A stretch of 64,000 nt of DNA from Escherichia coli (GCF_001677475.2 NZ_CP015229.1); one strand, 5' to 3'. Shown: positions 11,081-57,769, counted from the stretch's first letter. A program made the numbers and translations. The notes: generated by a model not told the origin, from the letters alone.

Positions 11081-11353
11081 GTGAGTATGCATCAAGTCGT
11101 CAGCTTTTCAGGTGGACGAACATCGGCTTATCTCGTTCATCTGATGGAAGCACAGCGAAAAGCTGGCGCTAGCGTCCATTTCATTTTTATGGATAAGTCT
11201 TACGGCTGGACTGAGTGCGATACCTTCGAAAGGTATTACGATTGGTCGAGAAACAAATGGTGGGCAGTCACTGACGATGGGGAAGAATCAGCATCGAAAC
11301 TAACTCACTGGATGCCACTACCAGAACCGCCACAGGAGTCGAAGAGTGAATAA
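11081..11353 (+). CDS. PAPS-reductase-like PP-loop fragment (90 aa, probably a truncated remnant)
   Basis: VVSFSGGRTSAYLVHL...FIFMD resembles the N-terminal PP-loop of PAPS-reductase-family proteins, but the ORF is far too short for the full domain. Confidence 0.4.
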   Translation: MSMHQVVSFSGGRTSAYLVHLMEAQRKAGASVHFIFMDKSYGWTECDTFERYYDWSRNKWWAVTDDGEESASKLTHWMPLPEPPQESKSE

Positions 11354-11552
11354 AGCAGAGTTATTTCAGAAAATATCGGCTCTCGCGACTGAATGCCACG
11401 CTATAGCATCTGAGCTTGATGTTGGCGATGAACGAACCGAGATGTTCGAAATATACAGTGTGCTGCGCAATCTCTGTCGGCGTGGCTACGCCACTCAAGT
11501 AGGGCGAATGACTAACCCACTACTCTCATCCTGTGATGAGGATGACGAATGA
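11346..11552 (+). CDS. hypothetical protein
   Basis: 68-aa track ORF overlapping neighbours by a few nt. Confidence 0.4.
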   Translation: MNKAELFQKISALATECHAIASELDVGDERTEMFEIYSVLRNLCRRGYATQVGRMTNPLLSSCDEDDE

Positions 11553-12214
11553 TGCATAAATCAGTAGCCGGTGAGTTTCAGAAGGAAGTCGATAATACTA
11601 CCGTTCTATTGGACGATATTTTAAGCATTCTCGCGCTGCTTGAGGCTGGCGATTGGTCAGAACATTGCACTAAAACAGAGCTAGGCGGTCGGCTTGAAAG
11701 AGAGATTACACGGCTTGTTGGTGATGCGCAGGAAGCTACAGTCACTAGTTATGAGTTAATCGCTGAAGCCTGGCGTTTGATGGATGGACAAGATCCTAAA
11801 ACAAGCGATTGGCATAGCAAGGCTTCGAAGTATTTAAATTCCAATAGGGTAGAAAAAGTTGATGATGTGAAACCGAAGCCAGTAGACCACGGTTTCCGCG
11901 ATAACTGCGAATGCTCTAGTTGCCAGACCACGGCCCGTATTTGTTCCGAATTGACAGATAAGTCCAGCCTAATCTACGAAGTTAATGTAGGCGGTAATAC
12001 ATGGGTCGAATGCACAAGAGCTGCATACGTAAGAGCAAAAGACAAGGGTGAATTAACCAGAGTTGTTACCAATCACCCAAATAATGAGCTTAAAGATCAC
12101 CAGATTCGAGAACTGGTGAACGAGTTGAGGGATATTGCGGTTCAGTACCACGGAACGCAGCAATTGCGGGAGAAGATTGCCAGAGCAGTGAACAACTCAG
12201 TCCGTAAAAAATAA
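11549..12214 (+). CDS. hypothetical protein
   Basis: 221-aa track ORF; ATGA overlap with the upstream ORF. Confidence 0.6.
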   Translation: MMHKSVAGEFQKEVDNTTVLLDDILSILALLEAGDWSEHCTKTELGGRLEREITRLVGDAQEATVTSYELIAEAWRLMDGQDPKTSDWHSKASKYLNSNRVEKVDDVKPKPVDHGFRDNCECSSCQTTARICSELTDKSSLIYEVNVGGNTWVECTRAAYVRAKDKGELTRVVTNHPNNELKDHQIRELVNELRDIAVQYHGTQQLREKIARAVNNSVRKK

Positions 12215-12427
12215 GCAATAGTACGATAAAGAGGCCCCATGCTCTTGATGGGGCCTGTAGCAACTAGCGTTATGGACGCTGGTTTACGTACTCAATGATC
12301 GCTTTGATAATCGCGAACATCGGCGGCACGATTTTGAACAGTAAGTTAACCATAACAGGTCTCACTTAGTTTTATCGCGCCTAGCTGCAAATACCTTTGG
12401 GCTTGCCTTTGCAGTTGCAATATCTGT

Positions 12428-12620
12428 AGTCGCCAGATACTTACGGCACGATTTCGAGTTAAGGTAAGGTTTTAGAGTCACCAAAAACCTGGACTTAAAT
12501 CTTCTTTGAGAACAACGATGTTTAGTAAATGGTCATTATTACCTGGTATGACCACTCAACGTTTCTTGATGAATCCAGTACATTCGGTTAATCTTAATTC
12601 AGTCGCCAGATACTTATGGC
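12428..12620 (+). repeat. two 20-bp direct repeats AGTCGCCAGATACTTAYGGC (12428-12447 and 12601-12620) in a structured non-coding region
   Basis: 19/20 identical copies 173 bp apart, with several hairpins between and after them; no ORF with a plausible start in 12215-13015. Confidence 0.6.
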
Positions 12621-12653
12621 TCAGGAACAGAGCCGCAAACTCTGTTTCCTCTT

Positions 12654-12685
12654 AAAAAGCCCAGCCTAGTCAACTGGGCTTTTTA
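12654..12685 (+). terminator. rho-independent terminator
   Basis: AGCCCAG-loop-CTGGGCT stem with A-run before and T-run after. Confidence 0.7.
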
Positions 12686-12980
12686 ATGTCTATTTTTAAC
12701 CCAATGAACCTTCAATACCGCAACATCAGTGTCTTGCGAATTAAGATAGTGTGTATAGGTTATACATGCAAGTGCATAACTCTGTGGATAACTCAGGAAG
12801 GAAAAAGTAGCTTCCGCGCAATTTAGGCCAGACAAGGCTTTCGCAAAAGTCAACGGAGAGAAAAAATTTGTTAAAAATAACGTTTGTTGGAATTGTATAT
12901 ATTTATGCCTTTCAATAGTTAGCATCTTATTAACATCTTTTTTAAGAGATAGAGTTCAAAAATATATAGCTTCAACATAT

Positions 12981-13000
12981 ACCGTATGTATATACAGTAT
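12981..13000 (+). promoter_or_regulatory. LexA (SOS) box-like sequence upstream of humD
   Basis: ACCGTATGTATATACAGTAT: perfect CAG half and alternating TA core, CCG instead of CTG in the other half; 16 nt before the humD ATG. Confidence 0.4.
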
Positions 13001-13015
13001 TAAGAGGCGAGTATT

Positions 13016-15960: not shown

Positions 15961-17154
15961 GTGACCTGGGACGATCACAAGAAGAATTTTGCTCGCCTGG
16001 CGCGAGATGGTGGTTACACCATCGCACAGTATGCCGCCGAGTTTAATCTTAACCCTAATACCGCACGTCGTTATCTCCGTGCCTTCAAAGAAGACACCAG
16101 GACAGCGGACAGCCGCAAGCCAAATAAGCCAGTCAGGAAGCCACTAAAAAGCATGATCATTGATCACTCTAATGATCAACATGCAGGTGATCACATTGCG
16201 GCTGGAATAGCGAAAAAACAAAGAGTTAATGCCGTTGTCAGTGCCGCAGTCGAGAATGCGAAGCGCCAAAATAAGCGCATAAATGATCGTTCTGATGATC
16301 ATGACGTGATCACCCGTGCCCACCGGACCTTACGTGATCGCCTGGAACGCGACACCCTGGATGATGATGGTGAACGCTTTGAATTCGAAGCTGGCGATTA
16401 CCTGATAGATAACGTTGAAGCGCGGAAGGCCGCGCGCGCTATGTTGCGTCGGTCCGGGGCCGATGTTCTGGAAACCACTCTTCTGGAAAAGTCTCTTTCT
16501 CATCTCATTATGCTGGAGAACGCCAGGGATACGTGTATTCGCCTGGTGCAGGAAATGCGCGATCAGCAAAAAGACGATGATGAAGGTACTCCGCCTGAAT
16601 ACCGTATCGCGAGCATGCTAAACAGCTGTTCCGCGCAGATAAGCAGTCTGATCAACACCATTTACAGCATCCGGAATAACTATCGAAAAGAAAGCCGGGA
16701 GGCGGAAAAGCACGCTTTATCTATGGGGCAAGCTGGCATTGTTAAGCTGGCATACGAACGAAAGCGTGAAAATAACTGGTCAGTGCTGGAAGCAGCTGAA
16801 TTCATCGAGGCGCATGGTGGGAAAGTGCCGCCCCTGATGCTGGAGCAAATCAAAGCCGATCTGCGTGCTCCTAAGACCAATACCGATGATGAGGAAAGGC
16901 AAACTGCCGTCGGTGGCCCTTCTCTTGAAGATCTGGACAAAGTTGCGCGAGAACGGGCCGCCAACCGCCGCGCCGATGCCGCATTGTGGATTGAGCAACG
17001 TAGGGAAGAAATCGCCGATATCGTTGATACAGGCGGTTATGGAGATGTTGATACTGAAGGTGTATCAAACGAACCATGGCTGGAACAAGACCTGGACGAA
17101 GACGAGGAGGAAGACGAAGAAGTTACCCGCAAGCTATACGGGGATGATGATTAA
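15961..17154 (+). CDS. pacA: terminase (pacase) small subunit PacA
   Basis: 397 aa; GTG start after AAGGAAG; contains the pac hexamer cluster; precedes pacB with a 1-nt overlap. Confidence 0.85.
16154..16312. other. pac packaging site (4 + 3 hexamers TGATCA/TGATCG flanking the cleavage region)
   Basis: TGATCA at 16154, 16161, 16173, 16188 and TGATCG/TGATCA at 16284, 16296, 16307, all containing Dam GATC, inside pacA as described for P1 pac. Confidence 0.7.
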
Positions 17155-18638
17155 TGGCCAGAAGTTGCGTAACGGATCCGCGTTGGCGCGAGCTGGTGGC
17201 GCTATATCGTTATGACTGGATTGCGGCGGCAGATGTTTTGTTCGGCAAAACACCTACCTGGCAGCAGGATCTGATTATTGAGTCTGTGCAGGAACAGGGT
17301 AGCAAGACATCTGTTTCGTCTGGTCACGGTACCGGGAAATCAGACATGACTTCTATCATGATCATGTTGTTCATAATCATGTATCCCGGTGCCCGCGCCA
17401 TTATCGTTGCGAACAAAATTCAGCAGGTAATGACCGGTATATTCAAGTACATCAAGATAAACTGGGCTACGGCCACCAGCCGTTTTCCATGGCTTGCTGA
17501 TTATTTTGTTCTGACAGAAACCGCTTTCTATGAGGTTACTGGTAAAGGTGTATGGACTGTAGTACCGAAGGGCTTTCGTCTGGGAAGTGAAGAAGCTCTC
17601 GCTGGTGAACACGCAGACCATCTTCTGTATATTATCGATGAAGCCTCCGGTGTCAGTGATAGAGCTTTCGGTATCATCACCGGTGCTCTTACCGGACAGG
17701 ATAACCGCATCTTATTGCTGTCACAGCCTACACGCCCAAGCGGCTATTTCTACGATACTCACCATAAACTGGCCAAGCGTCCTGGTAACCCTGATGGCGT
17801 TTATACGGCGATCACGCTTAACAGTGAGGAATCACCGCTGGTAACGCCAGCATTTATCAAAATGAAGCTGGCGGAGTACGGCGGGCGTGATAACCCTATG
17901 TACATGATTAAGGTACGCGGCCTATTCCCTAAATCACAGGATGGCTTCCTTCTTGGACGTGATGAGGTTGAACGTGCAACGCGGCGGAAAGTCAAGATTG
18001 CCAAAGGATGGGGCTGGCTTGCATGTGTGGACGTTGCTGGTGGTACGGGACGGGATAAGTCCGTTATCAATATCATGATGGTGTCCGGCCAGCGAAATAA
18101 ACGCCGTGTAATCAACTATCGAATGCTGGAATACACAGACGTTACAGAAACGCAGCTTGCTGCCAAAATTTTCGCAGAATGTAATCCTGAGCGATTCCCC
18201 AATATCACCATAGCGATAGACGGCGATGGCCTGGGTAAAGCAACGGCGGATCTGATGTACGAGTATTATGGTATTACCGTACAGCGTATACGCTGGGGTA
18301 AAAAGATGCATAGCCGTGAAGATAAGAGCCTGTACTTTGATAAACGTGCTTATGCCAACGTTCAAGCCGCAGAGGCCGTAAAATCTGGTCGTATGAGACT
18401 GGATAAGGGTAATGAAACTATTGAGGAAGCGTCGAAAATCCCTGTAGGGATTAACTCCGCAGGTCAATGGAAGGTGATGAGTAAGGAGGATATGAAGAAA
18501 AAACTCAACCTGCACTCACCAGACCATTGGGATACATATTGTTTCGCTATGCTGGCGGATTATGTTCCCCAGGATGAAGTGCTTAGCGTCGAAGACGAAG
18601 CGCAGGTTGATGAAGCTCTGGCATGGCTTAATGAATGA
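17154..18638 (+). CDS. pacB: terminase large subunit PacB
   Basis: 494 aa; ATPase motifs GHGTGKS and LYIIDEASG. Confidence 0.9.
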
Positions 18639-18641: not shown

Positions 18642-18658
18642 TTTGCTCTAATAAATTG
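18642..18658 (+). promoter_or_regulatory. C1-repressor operator (Op51-like, heading the immI-like module)
   Basis: TTTGCTCTAATAAATTG, 15/17, immediately after the pacB stop. Confidence 0.65.
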
Positions 18659-18699
18659 TGTTTTTTAACTACCGATGTTACATTGAACCTGACCTCTTG

Positions 18700-18815
18700 C
18701 GCCTTGAGGCATTTTCGGTTTATGCTGATCAGGCACCTCATTAAAACGGGTGCCGGGATTGGCCTCCCGCTTAAGTCTAAGGCGATACAGACGCCGCTCG
18801 CGTCTTTTTTTGTAT
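18700..18815 (+). ncRNA. candidate c4-type antisense regulatory RNA region
   Basis: GC-rich structured stretch ending in hairpin GACGCCGCTCGCGTC plus a T7 run, between the operator and the icd ribosome-binding site; placed by analogy with P1 immI; boundaries approximate. Confidence 0.3.
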
Positions 18816-18976
18816 CGGCGTACACGCACACCTCTACAATGGTGGGCTGTATGGGGCTACCTTCGGGTAGGCTGGTTACCTTGGACGCCAGTAAGGCCAA
18901 CTCCGTACAGTCCACCGCCAGCAAGATTGGTCTCTTCTGCGGTGGTTACATACCAACGTCTAAGGAGGCTGCCATT

Positions 18977-19198
18977 ATGGCTACTACCCCTACCCCAGCT
19001 CACCCTGAATTCATCTGGCGCTTTTACTCCTGCCAGAAACGTCACTATCACTTCGTTATCGCACCAACAGAAGATGAGGCACGTTCTCAGCTTCCGGATG
19101 CTCCCTGTATTTTCTCCGCCCGTTTTTCTACCGATTTGCGCAATTCTCTCAGTTACTGGTGCCCCCCTGTAAACGCTTGTGCTCAGGAGGGACTATGA
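18977..19198 (+). CDS. icd: Icd-like small protein
   Basis: 73 codons; TAAGGAGG 6 nt upstream of the ATG; stop overlaps the ant ATG (ATGA), matching the P1 icd/ant arrangement. Confidence 0.55.
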   Translation: MATTPTPAHPEFIWRFYSCQKRHYHFVIAPTEDEARSQLPDAPCIFSARFSTDLRNSLSYWCPPVNACAQEGL

Positions 19199-20310
19199 GA
19201 ACGTCATTAGTCACCCGTGAAGAGATGATCGAGGCAATTGAACAGCACACTGCTTGTATCAGTACCAGGGATATACCAGGCGTTATAGCCAACTACTTCA
19301 TGATCACCAAACAACTTTACCGGAGAAAGGACAAGAACGCGGTTCACCGCATCCTGCTGTCTGATATCCGCGAATACCTGCTCGAACAGGGGCATCTGAA
19401 TTACGCAACCGTCGCAGCCGAAACACGCAAGGAGGCACACAGAATGAAAGCAACTAACGTTAAATCAGAAAAAGTTCATGCACCTTCAGTTCAGGAGTCA
19501 GAGCTGGTGGTTGTTCAGAATCAGTCTGATGAAATTCCCGTTCTGGAATGGCTGGGAGTGCGTGTAGTGACAACCAAGATCCTTGCTAAGGGGTATGGGA
19601 CCGATGCGGATAACATCAAGAAGAACTTTTCCCGTAATGCTGAACGTTTTTGTGAAGGCAAGCATTTCTATAAAGTTATTGGAGATGATTTGAACAATTT
19701 GCGGGTGACTTTAAGTAACTCACAAAATCCCATCTCTCCTAAAGCCCGCTCACTCATCCTCTGGACGGAACGAGGAGCTGCCCGTCACGCAAAAATGCTC
19801 GAAACAGATCAGGCATGGGCATTCTTTGAAAAACTGGAAGACAGCTACTTCCGACAAAAAGAACAGCAACCGATCGCAATCCCCCAGACGCTTCCAGAAG
19901 CTCTGCGCCTGGCTGCCGAGCTGGCTGAACAAAAGCAACTTCTGGAACAGAAAACCCACCAGCTAAATCAGCAGCTGGTGGCCGCAGCCCCTAAAGTCGA
20001 TTTTGCCGACCGGGTATCAGTGGCTAAGGGGATCCTGATTGGGAATTTTGCAAAGGTTGTTGGACTTAAGCAAAATGCGCTGTTTGCCTGGTTACGGGAG
20101 AACGGCATCCTGATTGCGTCCGGCGGACGTAAAAATGTACCGTTTCAGCAGTACATAAACGCCGGATATTTCACAGTGAGAGAAGTGGTGCTGGATGATG
20201 AAGATGGCTATCAGATACGGCTGACGCCTCAATTAACGGGGAAAGGCCAACAGTGGTTGACGCGTAAACTGCTCGATGCTGGCTTGTTAAAACCGGTGGC
20301 GGCTGAATAA
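19195..20310 (+). CDS. ant: antirepressor (Bro-N/ORF6N-like N-terminus, KilAC/ANT C-terminal domain)
   Basis: 371 aa from ATG 19195 (track ORF starts at 19159); C-terminal KNALFAWLRENGIL...QQYINAGYF is a typical ANT-domain signature. Confidence 0.75.
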   Translation: MRTSLVTREEMIEAIEQHTACISTRDIPGVIANYFMITKQLYRRKDKNAVHRILLSDIREYLLEQGHLNYATVAAETRKEAHRMKATNVKSEKVHAPSVQESELVVVQNQSDEIPVLEWLGVRVVTTKILAKGYGTDADNIKKNFSRNAERFCEGKHFYKVIGDDLNNLRVTLSNSQNPISPKARSLILWTERGAARHAKMLETDQAWAFFEKLEDSYFRQKEQQPIAIPQTLPEALRLAAELAEQKQLLEQKTHQLNQQLVAAAPKVDFADRVSVAKGILIGNFAKVVGLKQNALFAWLRENGILIASGGRKNVPFQQYINAGYFTVREVVLDDEDGYQIRLTPQLTGKGQQWLTRKLLDAGLLKPVAAE

Positions 20311-20342
20311 TGGAAGAATGCCCGGTTGATGCCGGGCATAAT

Positions 20343-21194
20343 TTATTGCGCGCTTTCGGGGTTGTCGTTTACTGGCTGCCCCTTCTTAGTTTTACGGCTG
20401 CGCGTAACTGATGCGGCTGACTTAACCTTTTTCTCTTCGCGAGTGATGGCAATTTGTTTTTTTACATTTTCAATATCTGCCAGGCGATATATTTTTGCTT
20501 GCGGCCAGCGGTCGCAGATGATCGGTTCTATGGAGTCATAAAGGCTAAATTTTGCTTTTTCGAATTCACCGTTGATGATAATTCCATCACGGAGAGTTTC
20601 ATCGCAGATAAACACGCCACACAGTGGCACATGGTAACTAACTGATTTACCATCATTGTAGTTAGGGCTACTGGAAATGTAGTGGACGCGCAGCATTGTT
20701 TCGCTAAAGCCGTGTACGCGCATACGGAATTTTTCATCCTCTGGGTACTGCTTCATTAGCTCTTTTGTTGCTTCCAGGTTCTCTATGTATTTCGCACTGT
20801 GCTCATTGATCCCCGCGCTTTTTTGGATGCGAATGTCCTTATCAATCAGATGAATAATGCGGCCAGCGGTCATGTTGACGCTGTTCACAGCTTCTGTCTG
20901 ATAAGTCGTAACCTTACGTACACCGCGAAGGATGTTAGGCACAGGATATAAAATAGTCTTTGGGATATTGAGGTCTGGGTACTGTTCCAGTTCCCGCGCC
21001 ATTAAAGTCCATTTATCAATTTCAGCCTGAATGCTGTCTGTTTCTTTGAACGGTAGAACGACAACCGGGCGTACAGGACGACCGTCGCTGGCGGCATCAA
21101 CGTGTTGGGCGCGTGCAACAGCTTTTTTTAGAAAGAGATCCCTGAAGCTGACGAACTCCTGGTACAGTTGTTCGCCGTAGACATAATTTATCAT
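20343..21194 (-). CDS. c1: C1 repressor of lysogeny
   Basis: 283 aa MINYVYGEQLYQEFVSFRDLFLKK...; length and sequence match P1 C1 as recalled. Confidence 0.95.
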   Translation of the reverse strand: MINYVYGEQLYQEFVSFRDLFLKKAVARAQHVDAASDGRPVRPVVVLPFKETDSIQAEIDKWTLMARELEQYPDLNIPKTILYPVPNILRGVRKVTTYQTEAVNSVNMTAGRIIHLIDKDIRIQKSAGINEHSAKYIENLEATKELMKQYPEDEKFRMRVHGFSETMLRVHYISSSPNYNDGKSVSYHVPLCGVFICDETLRDGIIINGEFEKAKFSLYDSIEPIICDRWPQAKIYRLADIENVKKQIAITREEKKVKSAASVTRSRKTKKGQPVNDNPESAQ

Positions 21195-24360: not shown

Positions 24361-24386
24361 GGCGGCCATTAGGCCGCCTTTTTTTT
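24361..24386 (+). terminator. rho-independent terminator-like hairpin
   Basis: GGCGGCC-ATTA-GGCCGCC followed by a T8 run, 6 nt before the ref ATG; TTGACA at about 24350. Confidence 0.65.
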
Positions 24387-24392
24387 GACCAT

Positions 24393-24953
24393 ATGAAAAC
24401 AATCGAACAAAAAATTGAACAGTGCCGCAAGTGGCAGAAGGCAGCCAGAGAACGAGCGATCGCTCGGCAACGGGAGAAGTTGGCTGATCCGGTCTGGCGA
24501 GAATCTCAATATCAGAAAATGCGAGATACTATCGACCGCCGTATCGCTAAACAGAAAGAGCGCCCACCAGCCAGCAAAACGCGGAAAAGCGCGGTAAAAA
24601 TAAAATCTCGTGGCTTGAAGGGGAGAACACCAACGGCGGAGGAACGGCGCATCGCCAATGCTCTTGGCGCTCTCCCCTGCATTGCCTGCTATATGCATGG
24701 AGTAATATCTAATGAGGTGTCTCTGCACCATATCGCCGGTCGTACCGCGCCGGGTTGTCATAAAAAGCAATTGCCACTTTGTAGATGGCACCACCAGCAT
24801 GCAGCTCCGGCTGAAGTAAGAGAAAAATACCCCTGGCTGGTCCCTGTTCATGCCGATGGTGTGGTTGGAGGCAAGAAAGAATTCACCTTGCTGAACAAGT
24901 CAGAGATGGAGTTGCTGGCTGACGCCTATGAAATGGCAAACATCATGCACTAA
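24393..24953 (+). CDS. ref: Ref (recombination enhancement function), HNH endonuclease
   Basis: 186 aa; basic N-terminus and Cys/His HNH core (CIACY...HH...CRWHH). Confidence 0.9.
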   Translation: MKTIEQKIEQCRKWQKAARERAIARQREKLADPVWRESQYQKMRDTIDRRIAKQKERPPASKTRKSAVKIKSRGLKGRTPTAEERRIANALGALPCIACYMHGVISNEVSLHHIAGRTAPGCHKKQLPLCRWHHQHAAPAEVREKYPWLVPVHADGVVGGKKEFTLLNKSEMELLADAYEMANIMH

Positions 24954-25141: not shown

Positions 25142-25783
25142 ATGGATAAGAAAATATGCGTTGTTTCGATGAACGTCGGCAAACCGGCGTCAATGACTGC
25201 TGCATGGATCAACAACGAGCTGATAATGGCTGAGCGGACCAGCTACCCTGAACGCCGCCGCGACATGGAACTCCAGCTGCTGCGCGAATTGCGAGAAAAA
25301 GAGGAAAAGGGTTTTATCGTGCTGGTGGAAGAGGAAAACAGCTTTATTACTGGTCGAGTTGGCCAGCGTGTAAGGTTGCGCGATCCCTTCATGAACGGCA
25401 GGCCGGTACTGATTGAAGCAATGCAGATTTACAAGGAGCTGGAACGCCAGAAAGCGATCAAGTTACCACGCAAGGAGTCCGGCAAGTACATTCTCCATCA
25501 AAGCATCTTCGATTCCGAACACGACAAAAAAGGCGATGAATTTTTCAACATCAACTGGAGCGAAATAACCACAGAGCACGTTCTGACGCTACTATGTTGC
25601 TTTGCAACGGAATACAACAACGTGGTGAGCGCGCACTACATTCAGGCAATGGCTGGTAGGATTAATACGCAGCGTGAGCCCTCGCTGATAGAGCCATTCA
25701 TCAATATTATTAATGCTACTCAACGAATGGGAGAAACACGTGTGCCGCAAGGCTTACTCACAGGTAAATATGATTACCTTTAA
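25142..25783 (+). CDS. hypothetical protein (at the P1 mat position)
   Basis: track ORF 25115-25783 trimmed to ATG 25142, preceded by GGGGGAG. Confidence 0.6.
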   Translation: MDKKICVVSMNVGKPASMTAAWINNELIMAERTSYPERRRDMELQLLRELREKEEKGFIVLVEEENSFITGRVGQRVRLRDPFMNGRPVLIEAMQIYKELERQKAIKLPRKESGKYILHQSIFDSEHDKKGDEFFNINWSEITTEHVLTLLCCFATEYNNVVSAHYIQAMAGRINTQREPSLIEPFINIINATQRMGETRVPQGLLTGKYDYL

Positions 25784-26020
25784 TTTCAAACTTATTACAC
25801 CAAGCAGCTAATTACAAATTACTACTTAAGGTAACCAAAAATTATTATTTGCAAAACACATAAAAAACAAAAACAAAACAATAAAAAACACAAATTAACA
25901 TCAACACCAAATGAAGACATTTTACTAACCAAGCCTCAGCATCTATTACCAGTAGATATAAAGGTGATAAATGGAGGAATTAATAGCACGCATATTAAGC
26001 TGGTTGTTTCATAATCAATA

Positions 26021-26138
26021 ATTGAATAATAATTCAATGCGTCTCCATGATTTTTATGTAACGATGCACATTAATCGCATATATTTGTTGAATGATTTTC
26101 ATTTGAAATTTATTTAAAGTGAATAATTGATTTATTCA
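26021..26138. promoter_or_regulatory. two AT-rich palindromes upstream of the autotransporter gene (candidate operator sites)
   Basis: ATTGAATAATAATTCAAT (26021-26038) and TGAATAATTGATTTATTCA (26120-26138) share TGAATAA/TTATTCA arms. Confidence 0.35.
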
Positions 26139-26267
26139 ACCTCCTTATTTATTATTTTTCCGATTTTGTGCAGCGAAATGCATGAATATTTGCGAGAACA
26201 TAATCACACAGTAAACTAAAACATCTGTTATTATAAATCCGGATAATGTATAAACTCGAGGTTATCT

Positions 26268-29200
26268 ATGTCACTTTCTGTTTATAATAATAAAAAAAAT
26301 AGCTCTTCAGGGGGGAACTCTCCTCGCTTGACCCTACTGGCAGCTATAATCGGCGCATTATTTTCAAATGCTTACGCTTCAACAACTGCTATTAAAATTG
26401 ATAATGATGTTCAAGTTAATAAAGATAACCTCGATATTAATACGGGCAGTAATACAGGAAGTAATGGATATGCGATCTCTGTCACAAATTCAGGTGAACT
26501 AACTACCGAAGGTACAGTGACGTTATCTACAGAAGGTGATAAGGCAAACGGAGTTAATATATCCAGTGGGTCTAAAATTAACTCTCAAGGTGGGATTACA
26601 ATAACCACAAAAGGCAAAAACGCCTCTGGCATTTCACTTGATAATAATTCTTCAATGACTATCGCTAACGGTATGTCAATTACAACAAGTGGGATAAACG
26701 CTACAGGGATTAATGTTGACAAATCTTCACTAACTGTTGAACAAGGTGATATTAACACATCTGGTGTAAATGCTAGTGGTGTTTCTATTTTAAATGGAGG
26801 CCAAGCCAGTTTAAATAAAGTTAACATTACCACATCTGGAGATAATGCCAGAGGTATTGTTAGCTCTGGCATAAATAGCAAAATAGTAATTAGCGACTCA
26901 ACCATTACCACTCTGGGGGATAAAAAACCATCACAAGCATGGGGAGCTCGTGGCATATCTGCCGAAAACAACGGTTATGTTTCACTAACAAATACGCAGA
27001 TTAAAACTGATGGAACAGGGGCTTGGGGAGTATCTGCATCGTCAGCTGGCTCAGCTGAATTAGCTGATGTTCATATTTCCACTTCAGGCCAAAATGGCTA
27101 TGGTTTACGTGCAGATGGCAATAACTCTAGTATATCTGTATCTAAAGGACTCCAGGTAACCACTTCTGGCAAACAAGCTCATGCCGTAACTGCCTCTAAT
27201 AATGGGAATATAAATCTTGGAGTAAATGCATCTCTTGAAACATCAGGGACGCAGGCTAATACCATCCATATCACCGGTGGTAATGGTGGTATAATAACGG
27301 GTGATAGTATCTCAATAAAAACAAATGGCACATCAGCCAAAGGTATATATGTTACGGCTTTAAATCCCTCAGACTCAGCACCTGATTCACGCGTAGAGCT
27401 GACGGGAACATCAACAATCGCCACATTAGGTGATCAGTCAATAGGTGTGTGGGGGCATGGTAAAGTAGCTGATATTAGCTTCGAGCAAATAGCTATTAAT
27501 ACAGCCGGTACTGACTCATACGGTATAAATGCACAAAATGAAGCCACTGTTAATGCCCATACAGCCCAGATTATTACTAAGGGGCTAAACTCATATGGAG
27601 CAACAGCAAATTCAGCTGCAAAAATTACACTTGGTTCTGGTTCATCGATTACAACAAGCGGTGATTATGCTCATGGAATATGGGTCAGTGATGACAATAC
27701 AGTTATTAGTGGCAATAATGCATCCATTCATGTATCAGGAAAAGAGGCTGACTCTGTAGTCGCTGCCAATAATGCAAAAGTTGAGCTTACCCAAGAGAAT
27801 GGGGTGATGATTAGCGAAACTAGATATAACTTTAATGCTAATGGTGGTGCTATTTCCGCCACGTTAGATGGCAGCCAAATAAAGAATAACGGCACATTCA
27901 TCTTCTCAACCAGTAATGATGCCGGTGTGGGAGGGAACGTTGATGTTACAGTCAAGAATACTTCCTTTAATGGCGATATTCGCGCTGATAGTAACAGTAT
28001 TGCCAATCTTTCATTAGAAAATTCCAACTGGACTGGAACCGCGTATAATGGTGGCATTGTTAATTTAGCTAAAAACAGCATCTGGAATATGGTTAGCGAT
28101 TCGGATGTTGCTCATCTTAATAATAATGGCTCTATATATTTGGGCAGCGATGCAAAAAACACTTTAACAATTAATGGTGATTATACTGGCGAAAATGGCT
28201 ATATCTACTTTTCAGGCGTTCTTGGTGACGACACATCTCCAATCGATAAGTTGGTTGTAAAAGGAAATACAGAGGGTAAAACCTTTGTTTCCGTAAACAA
28301 CGTTGGTGGTATTGGGGCACAAACACTCAATGGCATCAACATTATCCAGGTTGATGGTCAATCTAACGGTGACTTTGTACAAGTTGGCCGAATTGCGGCT
28401 GGTGCTTATGATTACACTCTTGGGCGGGGGCAAGGCGATAAAAATGGCAACTGGTACCTAACTAGTGGCAAACAACCTGAGGATCCAACTCCGAACCCGG
28501 ACCCGGAGCCAAATCCGACCCCAACACCAGGTGACAATGATCTTCGCCCAGAAGCTGGTAGCTATACGGCAAACATTGCTGCTGCAAATACTATGTTCGT
28601 GACTCGCCTACACGAACGTCAGGGGCAAATGCAGTATACCGATGTGATTACCGGTGAATTGAAAACTACAAGCATGTGGATGCGTCATGAGGGTGGACAC
28701 AATCGCTGGCGCGACGGAAGCAACCAGTTAAAAACACAAAGCAACCGTTATGTTATGCAACTGGGCGGCGATATAGCACAGTGGGGTTGGAATAAAACGG
28801 ATCGCTGGCATCTTGGCTTAATGGCCGGATACGGTAATGACCACAATAATACAGAATCTGTGCGCACAGGATATCGTTCAAAAGGTAGTGTGAATGGTTA
28901 CAGCACTGGGCTGTATGCCACCTGGTATGCCAATGATGAAACACATAACGGGGCTTACCTAGACTCTTGGGCACAGTACAGCTGGTTTGATAACTATGTT
29001 AAAGGTGATGGATTGCAGAGTGAATCCTGGAAATCAAAAGGACTTACTGCATCACTGGAAACTGGTTATACCTGGAAGGCTGGTGAGTTTACGGGCAGCC
29101 AAGGTGGTTTGAATGAGTGGTATGTCCAGCCTCAGGCTCAGGTCATCTGGATGGGTGTTAAAGCGGACGAACATCGCGAAAGCAACGGTACCCGTGTTGA

Positions 29201-29522
29201 AAGCACCGGAGATGGTAATGTCCGTACCCGTCTGGGCGTGAAAACATGGATTAAAAGCCACAGTCGTATAGATGAAGGCAAATCCCGGGAATTCAGCCCA
29301 TTTGTGGAAGTGAACTGGCTGCATAACACCCGTGATTTTGGTACTCGTATGAATGGTGTGACGGTACATCAGGACGGTGCCCGTAATATCGGAGAAATAA
29401 AAACCGGTGTTGAGGGGCAGATAAATTCCAGACTGAACCTGTGGGGGAATGTAGGTGTTCAAGTCGGTGACAAAGGGTATAACGACACATCTGCAATGTT
29501 GGGTGTGAAGTATACCTTCTGA
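26268..29522 (+). CDS. AIDA-I/Ag43-type autotransporter (adhesin-like passenger, C-terminal beta-barrel)
   Basis: 1084 aa; N-terminal signal peptide, Gly/Ser/Thr-rich repetitive passenger, Pro-rich linker PTPNPDPEPNPTPTP, C-terminal barrel ending ...LGVKYTF; AT-rich codon usage unlike flanking P1-type genes. Confidence 0.85.
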   Translation: MSLSVYNNKKNSSSGGNSPRLTLLAAIIGALFSNAYASTTAIKIDNDVQVNKDNLDINTGSNTGSNGYAISVTNSGELTTEGTVTLSTEGDKANGVNISSGSKINSQGGITITTKGKNASGISLDNNSSMTIANGMSITTSGINATGINVDKSSLTVEQGDINTSGVNASGVSILNGGQASLNKVNITTSGDNARGIVSSGINSKIVISDSTITTLGDKKPSQAWGARGISAENNGYVSLTNTQIKTDGTGAWGVSASSAGSAELADVHISTSGQNGYGLRADGNNSSISVSKGLQVTTSGKQAHAVTASNNGNINLGVNASLETSGTQANTIHITGGNGGIITGDSISIKTNGTSAKGIYVTALNPSDSAPDSRVELTGTSTIATLGDQSIGVWGHGKVADISFEQIAINTAGTDSYGINAQNEATVNAHTAQIITKGLNSYGATANSAAKITLGSGSSITTSGDYAHGIWVSDDNTVISGNNASIHVSGKEADSVVAANNAKVELTQENGVMISETRYNFNANGGAISATLDGSQIKNNGTFIFSTSNDAGVGGNVDVTVKNTSFNGDIRADSNSIANLSLENSNWTGTAYNGGIVNLAKNSIWNMVSDSDVAHLNNNGSIYLGSDAKNTLTINGDYTGENGYIYFSGVLGDDTSPIDKLVVKGNTEGKTFVSVNNVGGIGAQTLNGINIIQVDGQSNGDFVQVGRIAAGAYDYTLGRGQGDKNGNWYLTSGKQPEDPTPNPDPEPNPTPTPGDNDLRPEAGSYTANIAAANTMFVTRLHERQGQMQYTDVITGELKTTSMWMRHEGGHNRWRDGSNQLKTQSNRYVMQLGGDIAQWGWNKTDRWHLGLMAGYGNDHNNTESVRTGYRSKGSVNGYSTGLYATWYANDETHNGAYLDSWAQYSWFDNYVKGDGLQSESWKSKGLTASLETGYTWKAGEFTGSQGGLNEWYVQPQAQVIWMGVKADEHRESNGTRVESTGDGNVRTRLGVKTWIKSHSRIDEGKSREFSPFVEVNWLHNTRDFGTRMNGVTVHQDGARNIGEIKTGVEGQINSRLNLWGNVGVQVGDKGYNDTSAMLGVKYTF

Positions 29523-29544
29523 ACTAAATAGCATCTAAGAACAA

Positions 29545-29571
29545 AGAGCAGAACCATGGATGGACTGCTCT
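29545..29571 (+). terminator. possible terminator hairpin after the autotransporter gene
   Basis: AGAGCAG-loop-CTGCTCT stem; T-run weak. Confidence 0.3.
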
Positions 29572-29626
29572 TTACCATGACACCGATATTCCATTATTTC
29601 TATCTTTTGATATATATATTAACAAA

Positions 29627-29971
29627 ATGAATAATAAAAAAGAAACTTGTTATATAAAAGCACATATAGAAAGGCATGATATTACAGTTCATGTGTGGAT
29701 ATCTGCATCATTGACAGAAGCTGAATGCAGCGTACTTGAGTTATTATTAAAGGGATATAATATCACTCAGATATCAAAGTCCCGATTTCGCAGCATTAAA
29801 ACAGTTTCTTTTCAGAAATACAAAATATACAAAAAGTTAGGAATTCATAATGACATCACATTCTGGGTAGATATTTCATTATCCCCTTATGTGAGAATAA
29901 AGTTCTCCGGTAAAGATAGTACGTTCAAGAAATGTATATTACCATGTCCTAATTACATCTCGATGCAGTGA
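29627..29971 (+). CDS. LuxR/GerE-type helix-turn-helix regulator
   Basis: 114 aa; LTEAECSVLELLLKGYNITQISKSRFRSIKTV matches the LuxR-type HTH signature; AT-rich. Confidence 0.65.
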   Translation: MNNKKETCYIKAHIERHDITVHVWISASLTEAECSVLELLLKGYNITQISKSRFRSIKTVSFQKYKIYKKLGIHNDITFWVDISLSPYVRIKFSGKDSTFKKCILPCPNYISMQ

Positions 29972-30111
29972 TAACTGCACTCAAACAATATCTACCTATA
30001 CAATATAAATACTCCATGACCAAGAAACGCATGAAGATATGGAACTTCACAAGTTTGCTCTTCATGGAGTATGGCTATCAGAGGGGCCAGTAACCGCAAC
30101 CTTTAAGTATA

Positions 30112-30360
30112 TCAATCTATATTCAGGAGCAATGCATTATCTATGATGATTTGCTCCCATTCTTCGAATGCCCGGTCGCGGACGCCCTGGGGAACGCTGT
30201 TAGTTTTGAAATCGACGACCGTCCGCCATTTTCCGTCCGGACGGTACATCCGCAGAGCTTTACTTCCCCCTTCCCTGCGCACCTCAACGTTATGCTTATC
30301 AGCAAACTCTTGTAATGCTCGTAGCGTCCCATGCTTTACTGTGTAGTATCGCTTTTTCAA
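30112..30360 (-). CDS. small basic protein (at the P1 lxc/bof position)
   Basis: 82-aa track ORF at the end of the darB-containing minus-strand gene string; assignment by size and position only. Confidence 0.45.
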   Translation of the reverse strand: MKKRYYTVKHGTLRALQEFADKHNVEVRREGGSKALRMYRPDGKWRTVVDFKTNSVPQGVRDRAFEEWEQIIIDNALLLNID

Positions 30361-44953: not shown

Positions 44954-45789
44954 TATTTAGCTCCTTTGCCACACCTAATAACAGTTCCAGCAATCCGTCA
45001 CCATTCATCAGTGATGCGGCAGCGGCCTCTTTGTCATGATACAACTGAAGAGCCATAGAGAATACTTCCGTTGCTGACGTTTTGGAAATAGTCGGTGATT
45101 TCTGCCGAATTTTCCCGGTGTTACTTACTGAGGCTGGCGGGTATACCTTCGCCATATAAATATTACTCAATCGAGATCTGAAGCACCATTCAGGCTTGCC
45201 ACGCCCACCGATATTGACGAAAGATGGCTTATCCCCTTCAACATTGGCCTTCAGGAATGACCGGGCTTTCTCTAACAAACCAGGGTTACTGTACTCAAGA
45301 TGATGACCCAGCTCGTGCCACAGTGCACTTGCATTTTCATCGTTCAAATTGACAGCAACAACACCATTTAGATTTGCATATGCCCTTCCCTGGTGGTGAA
45401 CTACCTTTGATAAGGTCGATATTTTCCCGCCGGTCAGGCGATAAATATCAGCAAGTTCCTTGCGCAGGTCTATCCCACCATTCTGTCCAGCGCGGGCTTC
45501 TTCCACTTCTTCTGTGATAAAAGAGTCGGCCCACTCAAGAGCTTTTTCTTCAGATACGGATGAGTTTGCGATCGCACTGTTCATGGCAGATAACACTTTC
45601 TCGTGGACCGAACCCATACTTCGCTGATTCATTTGCCAGCGTGTCTGCGGGTTATATGAGAATCGCTTAAGTAGTTGGTCAAGCTGCTCAAGTTCTTCTT
45701 CACTGACATACTTTTTAGCCTCACTATTAGACGTCAACTAGTTTTGCCGACTCGCGCCAACTATACTGGCCGCACCCTTCAGGGCGACA

Positions 45790-46545
45790 TCAAGTCGCGC
45801 TTGTTACTGCCTTCGCTGTCTTTTTCCTGTAGCTTTCCCCTTTCAGTTCGAACATATATCCGTGATGGATCAGCCTGTCTGCCGCAGCCACCGCCATAGT
45901 CTCATCCACGAAGATGCTGCCCCACATGCTGAACGGATGGTTACTGGTTATCACCAGGCTCCCACGTTCATAGCGATGCGCTATTAACTCGAACAGCACA
46001 CCCGTTTCGGCACTATCGCGTTTGACATAGCCAAGATCATCCACCACTATCACCCGGTAGCGATCCAGTTTCAGTAGCAGCTCATTCAGTTTCAACTGAG
46101 CTCTGGCTTTACGTAGTTCCTGCAACAGCTCTCCTGCGCTGTAGAACCGGGCCCGGTAGCCCTGACCTACTACGCCATCCACGATCGCTGCCGCCAGATG
46201 GCTTTTCCCCAACCCGCTGGCTCCGAACAGCAGAACGTTTTCTCCTGCATCAACCCAGTCTGTCGTTTCACAGAGTTGCCGGAACTGAGCTCCATTCAGT
46301 TCCGGCACCTGACTGAAGTCGTATTCGCTCAGCGTTTTGGCAACTGGCAACCGGGCCTCCTTTTTATAACGACGCAGTTTTTCACTCTCGCGCCACAGGA
46401 GTTCTTCATTGCATAGCGTCAGAAGATAGCGCGATGGTGTCCAGCCTTCTGCCAGCGCTCGTTTTTCCAGAGCGTGCCATTCAGCTCCAACTCGTGTCAG
46501 GCGTAGTTTACGCAGGCTATGTTCAAGGTGATGGATATTGCTCAC
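45790..46545 (-). CDS. istB: IS21-family IstB helper ATPase
   Basis: 251 aa, one residue different from copy 1 (DRLIHHG vs DRLLHHG). Confidence 0.92.
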   Translation of the reverse strand: MSNIHHLEHSLRKLRLTRVGAEWHALEKRALAEGWTPSRYLLTLCNEELLWRESEKLRRYKKEARLPVAKTLSEYDFSQVPELNGAQFRQLCETTDWVDAGENVLLFGASGLGKSHLAAAIVDGVVGQGYRARFYSAGELLQELRKARAQLKLNELLLKLDRYRVIVVDDLGYVKRDSAETGVLFELIAHRYERGSLVITSNHPFSMWGSIFVDETMAVAAADRLIHHGYMFELKGESYRKKTAKAVTSAT

Positions 46546-48041
46546 TGCGAACCTCCCTTGCCACGCAGTAGTTGCTCATAACTGCTCAGGTTATGCTGTA
46601 TCACATTGACTACCGGCAACGCCTTTTCTTTTATACCCAGGAAGCGCATCAGCCGGTGCAGATCCACGTTTCCCGGGGTATTCAGCATCTGCTCCATACC
46701 TTTTGCCACGACTGAGATATCGTCGTATCCTGCAGCCAGTTTCAGGGCATGTACCATCAGCCTTCCTGCCATATCGGGCTCCAGATGATTACATAAGCGA
46801 CGCCACAGCCTCCGCCATTCATCGTCCGGCAGGATGTCATTTCTCAGCGTTGCATGGCAGAACGCACCGGGCTTTTTTGCCAGACTGTCGATCACATGTC
46901 GGAAGTCGATACGACGGGCCCGCGTCTTCCCTTTTTCTGGTCTGACGCGAGGGCAGCTCATGACCTCGCTGCTGCCAACGTAACAGCTCAGACGATCGTC
47001 CCATAACCTGACCCGTAACAGTTGACCTACAAGCCGGGAAGGTACGCTGTAGACGACGTGCTTCACATTGATGGTACTGCTGCGACTAACCCTCACAGTC
47101 AGCTCATCATAGTCAGCACTGCGACGAAGCGGCAGCGGTTTCAGATGAAGACGTTCTTCCTTGACCAGATCCTGATTGTTACGGTTGTGCCGCATAACCT
47201 GCTGAGTGATGAAGGCCTGATATTCTTCTATGGTGCTGAAGTCGTTACTGCCCCGCAGTATCAGCGCCTGACAGATACGCCTTTTCAGATGTCCGTGGGC
47301 ACTTTCAACCGAGCCATTTTCGTGGCCCCGACCGGCATTATTGTGTACGCCCTGCATTCCGTAGTGCTGACAGAGAGTAGCATAACGCTCAGTCAGCTCG
47401 CGGCGTCCATCTTCGCCCTGTTGTTTCCATGCTGCCCTCAGGCTGTCCGTTTTATGTTCTACCGGCACTCCGCCCAGTTGTCCGAGGGCTTCCTGCAGGC
47501 CTTCAGCCAGAGCAGAGAAGCTCTCACCACCCAGAACAACCCGCATCCAGCTCCAGTGGCTCCATTCCAGACGGAAGTGATACAACTTATGCGCCAACAA
47601 CTTACCGGCGATGGTGACAACTACACCTTTCAGTTCAGTAAAGTCCGACAGGCCTCGCAGGCCGGGCTGATGTTGCTGGCGGAACATGACCTCCTGCTCT
47701 GTACCATACTGTAGTTTCCATTCGCGAACCCGCCGTTGCATTGTTCTTCGAAGGCTGTTGGGGTACTGGCCGGGATATTTATCCTGTAGCATCTCCAGTA
47801 GAGTTGTTGGTGTCAGAGCCGGCCTCTCTTTCAACAGAGGAACAAGCATGCTGTCCCACACAGCTTCCAGAGGATCTTTGCGTGTGCGCCAGTGCCGAAC
47901 ACTGTTTTTTGCCCACTCTCCTTTTTCGATCCGACGACCAGAACGGACTGAGATACCAGCCTTCATGGCCGAGATATGCTGAGTTATACCTTTCTTACGC
48001 TGAGTCATATAGTAACTGACCTGAGAAGTATTGAGCGTCAC
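46542..48041 (-). CDS. istA: IS21-family IstA transposase (intact)
   Basis: 499 aa, GTG start; continuous frame spanning both fragments of copy 1. Confidence 0.92.
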   Translation of the reverse strand: MTLNTSQVSYYMTQRKKGITQHISAMKAGISVRSGRRIEKGEWAKNSVRHWRTRKDPLEAVWDSMLVPLLKERPALTPTTLLEMLQDKYPGQYPNSLRRTMQRRVREWKLQYGTEQEVMFRQQHQPGLRGLSDFTELKGVVVTIAGKLLAHKLYHFRLEWSHWSWMRVVLGGESFSALAEGLQEALGQLGGVPVEHKTDSLRAAWKQQGEDGRRELTERYATLCQHYGMQGVHNNAGRGHENGSVESAHGHLKRRICQALILRGSNDFSTIEEYQAFITQQVMRHNRNNQDLVKEERLHLKPLPLRRSADYDELTVRVSRSSTINVKHVVYSVPSRLVGQLLRVRLWDDRLSCYVGSSEVMSCPRVRPEKGKTRARRIDFRHVIDSLAKKPGAFCHATLRNDILPDDEWRRLWRRLCNHLEPDMAGRLMVHALKLAAGYDDISVVAKGMEQMLNTPGNVDLHRLMRFLGIKEKALPVVNVIQHNLSSYEQLLRGKGGSQ

Positions 48042-50358
48042 GCCATTTCCTGTTGGATCATGTAAATGACACTCAGGTTACAAAACCGGCCAGAATAATC
48101 GGCGCCAGGCGGACTGAGTTATTGTCGTCTCATACCTCACCAATAATGCCAGGGAGAATATTGCCGTTAGGATTAAACGCTCGCGAAAGGAAGAGTTTCA
48201 GCGCCCCCATGCCCTCCGATGCTTCAATATCACCAATAACCCGGTTAACAATGGCCGCACTCTTCGGATTAGCATCCGCCAACGCTCTGGCTACAATTTG
48301 CAGGGACGATACGACCTCACGCTGCATATCCGTCCTGATCTCATCAATAAACTCTGGCGTTATGCCGTGCTCTTTAAGAATATCCCTGCCTTCCGCCGTT
48401 ACCCCATCGATATCACCGACATGTTTATTAACCCGACTTTGCAATGCCTTAAATGCCTTCAGAATTCCACGGGAATCATCCGCTTTACTAACGGCCTTCC
48501 TGAATGCTGGCAAGAAGTCTGAGTTAACCTCATTTTGTTGATCGGCCCACTGAATGGAGGCTTCTTTCATCTCGTCCAGAGTCAGATCACCCAACGCGGT
48601 ATGGTCTGTGAATATGAGCGACAACCTCTGAACCATTTCTGCCAATGGTGATGCCGAATGCGCCGCGCTAAGGAATGCTTTCACCCTGGTTGGGCGAATG
48701 GAAAACCAGTCAATAGCTGGTGGCATATCTCCGTTTTGTATCGCCTGCGCTATCTCATCAAAGCCGTCGCGCCCAAGGGAGGATGCGTGATTTAACAATC
48801 CGCGAAGTAACGAATTGCTGATACCGAATAATCGGCACCATTTATTCACGTCGGCAACAGGCATTCGAACAAAATGCGCAAGCACTTGTACAAGCTGTTC
48901 ATCCTGGGGATCTGTACGGGAAAGCAGCCTGATCAGATGAATAATGTCTTTGATGCCGGATGCCCGATGTAATAGCAAGCTGGTATATGGAGCAACACCG
49001 TTGTAACTACCGCCGGAAACGGACTCGAAAAGACCGCCGGATATCCCTTGCATGCCTTCGTTTTCCAGTTCCTGAGACACCTGGCGAAGGATATCCTGTA
49101 ACGACACATCGCCGCCGCCAAACATATCCCCCAGCGCCTGGCCCTGGTGCTGTAACTCATCATTGATACGTTGAGCCATCAACTTAAAGGCGGTGGCCAT
49201 ACGCTTCGCGCTACGGTTATTCGCGACGATGAACAACGCGAGTGCTTTCACTTCCGGGGCCGTTTCGCTGAACATATCCCCCTGAGCAATAACATCGGTA
49301 ATATGCTGGCCTGACTCCTTCGATTGCCTTACCAGGTCTACCGCATCTTTCAATGCCGCCAGCGCCTTTTTATCGAGGCTATCCGCTGTCTCAATGCCAT
49401 CAACAATAGTTGTCACAGCCTGCTTGTGCGCTTCTCCTGATAAAGCCTGCATCTGGACAAAATCATTGGCTGCCGCATTAAGCGCCGTCAGAACATTACG
49501 CATATCCGGATCAGGTTCTTCTGCAACCATCCTTACCAGGCGCGCATCCTTATATGCCTTGGCAAAGATCGCGTTTTGTATACGGTCAACAAGTTGCCGC
49601 GTTGGTCGCCCATCTTCCGTTACAAGGCCAGCAGCCTGTGTGGCACCAACTTGCGTCATGAATCCGCGAATAAACGCGTCATTACTGCGGCTAAGCAGAT
49701 CTCCGCTTTCTGACGGATTAAACAGCGCCATCATCGCCGGTGTTATGCTGTCGGCATCAACAAAAGCCTTTTCACTGGCTGCCATTTCCTGAAGATCAGA
49801 AATATTTGAGTCCTTGGCAAACTGAACGCGGTCAACCTTAGTTAACCGGCGGCGCACCAATACAGGAGCCGTCATTGATTCAACCTTTTCAGGTCGTATG
49901 CCGAATTCGGTCGCATGTTCAATCAGGTACTCACGATACCGATCCGCATTGCCGTCCTGATAGGCTTTAATGATTCCCATGGTCCGTCCATTACCTGACT
50001 CAACGGCATTGTCCTCACCAATTATCGGCGCGCCATGGCTGGATAAACCGGAATCGGTAAGCTGAGCAGGCCGCAAATCTTTGGATATCTGGTTAACCTG
50101 AAGAAGGCTGGATGCGCGGGTCCGGTCGCGCGGCTGAAGTTCCTGGGGATAGTCAGGATTAATTTTCCCATCCAGAGTATTGGATACCAAAAGAGCTGAG
50201 GCATCGACGATATCAAACGCTGTTTTTACCTCGTCTCCCTTCGCTGTCACCACATACGAAACCCGCCCATAATCGGGCAGGTTCTTAAGCAGCTCGATCA
50301 GCGTTTCTATGCTGGTGGCAATTACCACCTGATCGCTTAAGCTCATCCCTGTTACGCC

Positions 50359-54000: not shown

Positions 54001-54466
54001 AAGTTCCCTCCTACGTTGTCAGGAGGTAATGGTATGCAAAGTAACTTCTCATCTGGTTGTTCATAATTTGCCAATACATTCGTAAATCAAGTGAAAAACC
54101 CATATTTTGGTTATTCTTAATACAAAATGGCTATTCCAACTACATATCAAAAAAGCAACCACATTCAAAAATGAGTTTCCCCACTGAACTTCTGCAAGAC
54201 AAAAACCAACAAAACCACCTTTTATGGCAAGCAGCCATGCTTCAAGCCAATGTAAAAAACATGGCTTATAAGCTCCACGCCTAACTCCAGTAAGAAATAA
54301 ATAGGTTCCACTAATAATGGACATTAAAAAAATCAAAATCTGCATAAGCTCCTCCCGGATCTAACAAAAATCAAGCAGGAACCTATTCAGATTGTTATTT
54401 CTGTGCATAACGCTTTGTTCTTTAAAATTCGCAGACTCATAAGAACAACGCATTAGAGTAAAAATC

Positions 54467-55027: not shown

Positions 55028-55044
55028 ACCTTGGTTTAAGAGAA
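55019..55044. other. cixL crossover site of the invertible C segment
   Basis: CAATCCTAAACC-TT-GGTTTAAGAGAA, a 26-bp site with inverted 12-bp arms and AAACC..GGTTT core. Confidence 0.7.
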
Positions 55045-55074
55045 CTCGGTACCAGCGGTGAAAAGATCCCCCTG

Positions 55075-56676: not shown

Positions 56677-56677
56677 T

Positions 56678-57205: not shown

Positions 57206-57233
57206 AAATTAAGGCCCGCTATCGGGCCTTGTC

Positions 57234-57767: not shown

Positions 57768-57769
57768 AA

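Follow-up and report, generated by a model that had tools for sequence, protein, structure and literature searches.

Positions 18642-20310 of a 64,000-nucleotide (nt) stretch of Escherichia coli DNA (GCF_001677475.2 NZ_CP015229.1; below, "the window" is this whole stretch) hold a module resembling the immI immunity locus of phage P1, set between the terminase gene pacB and the repressor gene c1. The two genes are 1.70 kb apart in the window, whereas only 24 bp separate them in P1. The interval contains a putative C1 operator, an isrK-type leader RNA, a C4 antisense RNA, an icd homologue and the antirepressor genes ant1 and ant2 (Table 1). The original prediction for this DNA had described a C1 operator directly after the pacB stop, about 300 bp of GC-rich structured non-coding sequence, a 73-codon icd-like open reading frame (ORF) with a strong ribosome-binding site, and a stop that overlaps with the ATG of a 371-amino acid (aa) antirepressor. 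All of these are present. The operator begins four bases past the stop, and the non-coding stretch (18659-18976) has 52% GC and two Rfam RNA matches; the C4 gene alone has 62% GC and the whole window 48%. The hairpin with T-run that was placed at the end of the non-coding stretch is actually found in its middle, where it closes the leader ahead of C4, and the hairpin just before the 73-aa ORF (18912-18946) has no T-run. All ORFs of the module are intact.

Table 1. Features of the pacB-c1 module and its immediate neighbours (window coordinates)
Feature	Position	Strand	Basis and details
pacB (terminase subunit)	17154-18638	+	Left neighbour, outside the module; ORF and match to annotated pacB of RCS47, P1 and P7
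Putative C1 operator, counterpart of P1 Oc4/Op51	18642-18658	+	TTTGCTCTAATAAATTG; 15/17 matches to the consensus ATTGCTCTAATAAATTT
Putative C1-controlled promoter	18656-18684	+	TTGTGT, 17-nt spacer, TACATT; alignment to a mapped P1 promoter
Putative operator-free promoter, counterpart of P1 P1c4/P51b	18697-18726	+	TTGCGC, 18-nt spacer, TATGCT; alignment to P1
isrK-type leader RNA	18733-18812	+	Rfam isrK match, terminator scan, complementarity, fold; a1 UUGGCCU (18759-18765, hairpin loop); b1 GUCUAAGG (18775-18782); intrinsic terminator, hairpin and T-run (18789-18812, terminator scan)
C4 antisense RNA	18835-18922	+	Rfam C4 (RF01695), 75.9 bits against a gathering threshold of 45, full-length model; b' CCUUGGACG (18879-18887, hairpin loop); a' AGGCCAA (18894-18900, junction)
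Downstream target region	18927-18968	+	a2 UUGGUCU (18927-18933); b2 CGUCUAAGG (18957-18965); Shine-Dalgarno TAAGGAGG (18961-18968)
icd homologue, 73 aa	18977-19198	+	78% identical to P1 Icd; NCBIfam phage_ICD_like; phrog_1426
ant1, 371 aa	19195-20310	+	Start overlaps icd stop (ATGA, 19195-19198); phrog_63, E = 1e-133
ant2, 288 aa	19444-20310	+	In-frame internal start behind AAGGAGG (19429-19435)
GC-rich hairpin	20318-20339	.	Between convergent ant and c1; terminator scan
c1 repressor gene (immC)	20343-21194	-	Right neighbour, outside the module; ORF and match to annotated c1 of RCS47, P1 and P7

RNAs, control region and genes

The immI locus of P1 (48140-49731) is annotated with Oc4/Op51, two promoters, a1, b1, a 77-nt C4, a2, b2, icd, ant1 and a nested ant2. 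The window module is colinear with it, element for element and with similar spacing, and the architecture proposed in the original prediction is thus that of P1 immI. The leader belongs to another family. The Rfam isrK family (RF01394) matches 18733-18810 with 60.8 bits against a gathering threshold of 50, over model positions 1-77 and including the 3' terminator. The c4-a1b1 family (RF03163), which scores 51-57 bits in P1 and in two other copies of the phage-plasmid pO111_2 (its canonical immI and a third copy described below), reaches 19.8 bits at 18720-18773 (E = 0.011), below its gathering threshold of 46.7. The window leader is therefore of the isrK type and not of the P1 c4-a1b1 type. 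The same division holds among the relatives: canonical and third copies have c4-a1b1 leaders and pacB-c1 copies have isrK leaders. Both kinds share one layout, namely a hairpin, a1 in a hairpin loop, b1, and a hairpin with T-run. In the predicted fold of the short leader RNA, a1 and b1 are exposed.

The C4 RNA folds with -41.8 kcal/mol (z = -4.1). By analogy with the annotated P1 C4, the mature RNA is predicted to span about 18841-18919 (79 nt). The Rfam scan found this one C4 match in the whole 64 kb. Downstream of C4, b2 overlaps the icd Shine-Dalgarno sequence, and a2 and b2 of P1 are annotated at the same positions. A read-through transcript that had not been processed (18733-18990) is predicted to fold with -100.6 kcal/mol (z = -3.4), with a1/b1 paired to a'/b' in cis and a2 in a hairpin loop. 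Such an alternative conformation recalls the two structures published for IsrK.

A protein-coding reading of the RNA region was considered, as the icd frame is open from 18635, and was ruled out by the 2-7 in-frame stops found in relatives. The icd-frame translation of about 18737-19012, which is open across isrK and C4, matches Pfam Phage_ASH (E = 2.3e-10), and in relatives PGAP places an "ash family protein" on these RNAs. The Ash protein family seems to have been built, at least partly, on an RNA gene, because the other copies carry these stops.

The operator core TGCTCTAATAAATT is the same as that of Op51 in P1 and P7, and P1 Oc4 lies at an equal relative position. The consensus match and this alignment mark 18642-18658 as a putative site of C1 action. 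Twelve C1-operator-like sites occur in the whole window against 0.26 expected by chance, an excess that is consistent with a P1-type C1 regulon. The other 11 17-mers (1-3 mismatches) start at 1920, 8013, 8062, 10154, 15336, 21289, 21753, 21836, 24278, 37528 and 41378. By alignment, the -35 hexamer at 18656 would overlap the operator, as in P1 P2c4/P51a. Transcription starting about 7 nt downstream of the operator-free promoter would begin at position 1 of the isrK model. The promoter calls are taken from the P1 alignment because a consensus promoter scan found nothing upstream of the RNAs, the C1-controlled promoter falling under the scan threshold. Position 18727, right after the putative -10 hexamer, is G in the window and T in all six other pacB-c1 copies (TATGCTG vs. 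TATGCTT). This is a private change beside the predicted leader start.

The ant2 start sequence, AAGGAGGCACA(C/T)AGAATG, is conserved with P1 ant2, and AAGGAGG-N8-ATG lies at 19429-19446. The window Ant is 54% identical to P1 Ant1 overall and about 90% identical over the C-terminal ~145 aa. It consists of a conserved Ant1-specific N-terminus, a Pfam ORF6N domain (residues 117-201) and a KilAC/ANT domain (PF03374, residues 259-360, E = 2.4e-30). ORF6N replaces the middle of P1 Ant, which has no such domain. The hairpin between ant and c1 is probably a terminator at the right end of the inserted segment.

Pairing and recognition codes

The original prediction called for a check of complementarity between the C4 region and the icd ribosome-binding region, and a'/a2 and b'/b2 pairing was found there. 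The scans were limited to the single-stranded segments of C4; RNAduplex runs of whole C4 against the flanks opened the C4 stem and gave long duplexes. Loop b' (CCUUGGAC(G)) pairs upstream with b1 and downstream with b2, on the Shine-Dalgarno sequence, and junction a' pairs upstream with a1 and downstream with a2. These partners are the top-ranked complements of each C4 segment in the region, and a precedes b in both flanks. The whole pattern recurred in 1 of 20000 dinucleotide shuffles of the flanks.

Covariation speaks more strongly for the pairing than the shuffles do. When twelve modules are aligned, a1/b1, a'/b' and a2/b2 are seen to change in concert and define five types among the P1-like modules (Table 2). 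Two further b types come from two chromosomal islands that share the a site of the window, giving seven types overall among the fetched loci. Cognate combinations form runs of 7-10 paired bases and non-cognate combinations mostly runs of 4-6; pairing energies, calculated on alignment-defined segments, separate the two less well than run lengths do. Many C4 stem positions differ between the window and RCS47 types, yet each type folds into a full stem. Because the elements co-vary and cognate runs are longer than non-cognate ones, the window code is distinct from those of P1, P7 and RCS47, which bears out the suggestion that the antisense specificity might differ from P1 and P7. In the model proposed here, this distinct code would define a separate immunity specificity acting alongside canonical immI.

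Table 2. Recognition codes of the five types among P1-like modules (site, followed by the C4 segment where two sequences are given)
Type	a	b
P1	UUGACAG	GUUAGUG
P7 and canonical copies of RCS47 and pO111_2	UUAGCAG	GAUUGUG
Third copy of pO111_2	UUGACAG	GUACAUG
RCS47 pacB-c1 copy	UUGAGAC / GUCUCAA	GUCAAAGG / CCUUUGAC
Window	UUGGCCU / AGGCCAA (a2: UUGGUCU)	GUCUAAGG / CCUUGGAC

The model follows that of P1. In the P1 model, reportedly built up by Citron and Schuster in 1990, Biere et al. in 1992, Riedel et al. in 1993 and Hartmann et al. in 1995, C4 is said to be processed from the operon's own transcript and to pair with a2 and b2, which blocks icd translation, while translational coupling and polarity prevent synthesis of Ant; Ant, once made, reportedly inactivates C1. 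Every sequence element that this model requires is present in the module, and by analogy the same steps would operate in it. Past pacB, transcription would start from both putative promoters, the first of which overlaps the C1 operator. The transcript would first form the isrK-type leader, which displays a1 and b1 and would end at the intrinsic terminator. Read-through would enter C4, presumably released by RNase P in the P1 manner as a stable species about 79 nt long. Its loop b' and junction a' would then pair with b2 and a2 just upstream of icd. Because b2 covers the Shine-Dalgarno sequence, icd would stay untranslated. Ant1 and Ant2 would not be made either, since ant1 starts within the icd stop and since polarity, shown for P1, would act as well. 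On entering a cell that has no matching C4 type, a genome would make Ant, which would inactivate C1.

Additional copies and alternative explanations

The original prediction took the adjacency to immC as possibly lineage-specific and supposed that immI is not next to immC in P1. The latter is correct, P1 immI being 45 kb from immC, and genome comparison shows that P1 does not share the arrangement. As for the lineage, the arrangement is absent from P1, but it is widespread and already on record (RCS47, PMC6906374). The full module is also found in phages RCS47, JL22 and 673R5. With a coverage of at least 80%, the module occurs in about 280 PLSDB plasmids and, when its first 821 bp alone are considered, in 256 of 5426 complete E. 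coli genomes. The RNA region of the window occurs at 95% identity or more in 102 plasmids. The RCS47 record (NC_042128) annotates ant at the pacB-c1 site, but neither the RNAs nor icd, and Venturini et al. (PMC6906374), writing in 2019 in connection with RCS47, mention "ant inserted between pacB and c1". In the literature searched, the RNAs of the pacB-c1 module were not found described, only an inserted ant being mentioned; subscription journals were thinly covered and a prior description is possible. Co-resident copies bearing different recognition codes were likewise not found in that literature. The arrangement and the mechanism are of a kind already known; it is the RNA anatomy of this copy and the differing codes of co-resident copies that we did not find described.

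In every relative examined, the pacB-c1 module is an additional copy and not a relocated immI. All four (RCS47, JL22, 673R5 and pO111_2) have both the pacB-c1 module and the canonical c4-icd-ant1/2-kilA-repL in place, and the 40 best plasmid matches show 2-4 ant-related places each. pO111_2 contains three C4 genes, and its three icd/ant sets all differ in code. Its third copy (pO111_2 2472-4059, minus strand, downstream of cre) consists of c4-a1b1, C4, icd and a degraded ant, and its code is a hybrid, with a as in P1 and a new b. The window has about 560 unrelated bases (24384-24945) at the third-copy site. The window corresponds to pO111_2 from 69854 through the origin to 33653. Five stretches of it (2268-4730, 11150-13015, 25656-30121, 45724-48135 and 54051-58750) have no megablast match to the otherwise syntenic pO111_2 and are probably variable cargo, restriction or tail-fibre regions.

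The isrK and C4 cassette is also found on its own, without operator, icd or ant. It occurs at 88% identity in chromosomal integrase-primase islands beside yicC, and at about 80% identity in many Shiga toxin (Stx)-converting phages, where Rha-family regulators lie downstream. The pair is present in more than 90 phages of the Stx-converting and related lambdoid kinds (e.g., LC710660.1 10893-11152) and mostly overlaps or adjoins a gene annotated as a Rha-family regulatory protein. In two E. coli chromosomal islands beside yicC the cassettes (5018-5206 and 4993-5183 in the fetched loci) are 85-88% identical to the window. These islands are of satellite-like make-up and have the window's a determinant together with different, internally co-varying b determinants. 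The module is a mosaic: its operator/promoter region is P1-style, its RNA cassette is widely shared, and these are followed by icd and by an Ant that joins P1-like ends to a lambdoid-style middle.

We consider it likely that the module is a complete, self-contained second immI-type switch joined to the C1 regulon of a P1-like phage-plasmid. Several points weigh against this. Both promoters are poor fits to the sigma-70 consensus and were missed by the scan. The minimum-free-energy fold of the unprocessed read-through transcript disrupts the C4 stem. The middle third of Ant has been swapped for ORF6N, and its target could accordingly differ from C1. The canonical immI site is about 7 kb past base 64000, outside the window, and a copy there is seen only in relatives, from which we infer one in the source genome. 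The module is dispensable, because some relatives (e.g., pO111_2) carry a copy disrupted by an insertion sequence (IS). Finally, the isrK-type leader of the Salmonella prophage Gifsy-1 acts positively in trans, so the window leader may be more than a passive target.

This last point leads to a fuller role for the leader. The terminated RNA of about 78 nt could pair through a1/b1 with C4, either free or within the long transcript, and so switch on icd-ant translation, as an anti-antisense RNA. In Gifsy-1, terminated IsrK activates translation of the downstream antirepressor in trans by more than 100-fold, and processing of the sequence that follows isrK yields an ~80-nt RNA (STnc1160; PMC4825925). 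The isrK match in the window includes the terminator, the short RNA is predicted to fold with a1 and b1 exposed, and in the read-through fold these sites are paired in cis to a'/b', which resembles the published "structure A". On the other hand, the role of a1/b1 in P1 is annotated merely as "putative", Hfq binding and trans-activation by isrK are known only for Gifsy-1 (PMC4825925), and the details may not transfer, as Gifsy-1 has orf45 overlapping the C4-like RNA instead of icd. We regard such a three-RNA switch as plausible, if somewhat short of probable, and it would add to the second-switch model, not replace it.

The remaining explanations concern what the module is and what it acts on. 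It would be quite unlikely to be the only immI of the source genome, a canonical c4-icd-ant operon that had moved beside immC: by synteny the window does end about 7 kb before the canonical position (in pO111_2, at 40.5 kb), which keeps a canonical copy out of direct view, and the Rfam scan of the 64 kb gave a single C4 match and no canonical immI, but the relatives keep both copies and the leader family and Ant middle domain differ from the canonical ones. This pattern agrees with acquisition, not with transposition of a resident copy. Ant might instead inactivate the repressors of co-resident lambdoid prophages or satellites, with C4 cross-talking with their cassettes. The similarity of the RNA cassette to those of the islands and Stx phages, the a determinant shared with the islands, and ORF6N, which is typical of lambdoid antirepressors, speak for such a role. 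The b determinant, however, differs in each island examined, and the module lies under a C1 operator and has the Ant1 N-terminus and C-terminal ~145 aa of P1 Ant. The a and b sites of P1 and P7 differ at just two positions each, and yet these phages are, after Citron and Schuster in 1990, said to be heteroimmune. We hold a role directed at other elements to be unlikely. That the module is a decaying, non-functional duplicate is highly improbable. In pO111_2 there are copies interrupted by IS1203 or degraded, and P1 and P7 do without the module, but the window copy has kept every reading frame, the two Shine-Dalgarno sequences and the six pairing elements intact. The pairing elements also co-vary between types, which requires selection on pairing.

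Significance and comparison with known systems

Among the common carriers of resistance genes in E. coli are P1-like phage-plasmids, whose coexistence, exclusion and induction depend on immunity. Many of these have a further copy besides the one immI of the textbooks, with an RNA recognition code of its own. Such codes offer a simple sequence-based typing of immunity groups in P1-like plasmids, and the antisense/target pairs behind them form a natural set that appears to be orthogonal. The locus also joins the separately annotated Rfam families isrK and C4 into one regulatory unit. A broader view, which we put forward tentatively and think rather doubtful, is that two or three C4/Ant modules, orthogonal to one another, are stacked in P1-like phage-plasmids, immunity being a combinatorial code, and that the terminated isrK-type leader is a trans-acting anti-antisense RNA. 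If so, a resident would stay repressed only when it carries all C4 types of the relative that enters, and the b site, fused to the Shine-Dalgarno sequence, would be the fast-evolving letter of the code. P1 immI, Gifsy-1 IsrK and the satellite-island cassettes would then be one three-RNA switch, which could cross-talk among a plasmid prophage, lambdoid prophages and satellites in one cell.

The cassettes of the Stx-converting phages and of the islands resemble the module in having the isrK and C4 families in tandem at 80-88% nucleotide identity, and the islands share its a determinant. They differ in their downstream genes (a Rha-family regulator, or Icd-like and primase genes), in the lack of a C1 operator and in their b determinants. 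The isrK-orf45(STnc1160)-anrP region of Gifsy-1 is likened here from its published description (PMC4825925). It also has an isrK-family leader with its own terminator followed by an ~80-nt processed RNA, and its antirepressor is translated by coupling to a short upstream ORF via an AUGA overlap. In contrast to the module, its short orf45 overlaps the C4-like RNA and is no homologue of icd, a C1 operator is lacking, and the published model is one of activation by the short leader, not of repression by the downstream RNA. A further counterpart is the pacB-c1 insertion of phage RCS47 and plasmid pTZ20_1P, which has the same site, operator, leader fold, icd and 371-aa ant, with 93.5% identity over 2.4 kb. 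RCS47 differs in its recognition code, in many compensated changes in the C4 stem and in 21 extra bases ahead of C4.

Another close system is the immI of P1 and P7. Shared with it are the order and spacing of the elements, the 5' C1 operator, the Rfam family of C4, the position of b2 on the icd Shine-Dalgarno sequence, the 73-aa Icd, the ATGA overlap of icd and ant1, the nested ant2 start and the homologous N- and C-termini of Ant. The P1 locus, however, lies between sim and kilA-repL and not between pacB and c1, and the module differs from it in the isrK-type leader, the recognition sequences and the ORF6N middle of Ant; at the nucleotide level its RNA region hardly resembles that of P1. The module is a well-formed paralogue of a system known from textbooks, with a proposed mechanism that follows the known P1 model, and is a useful lead for immunity typing and not a surprise.

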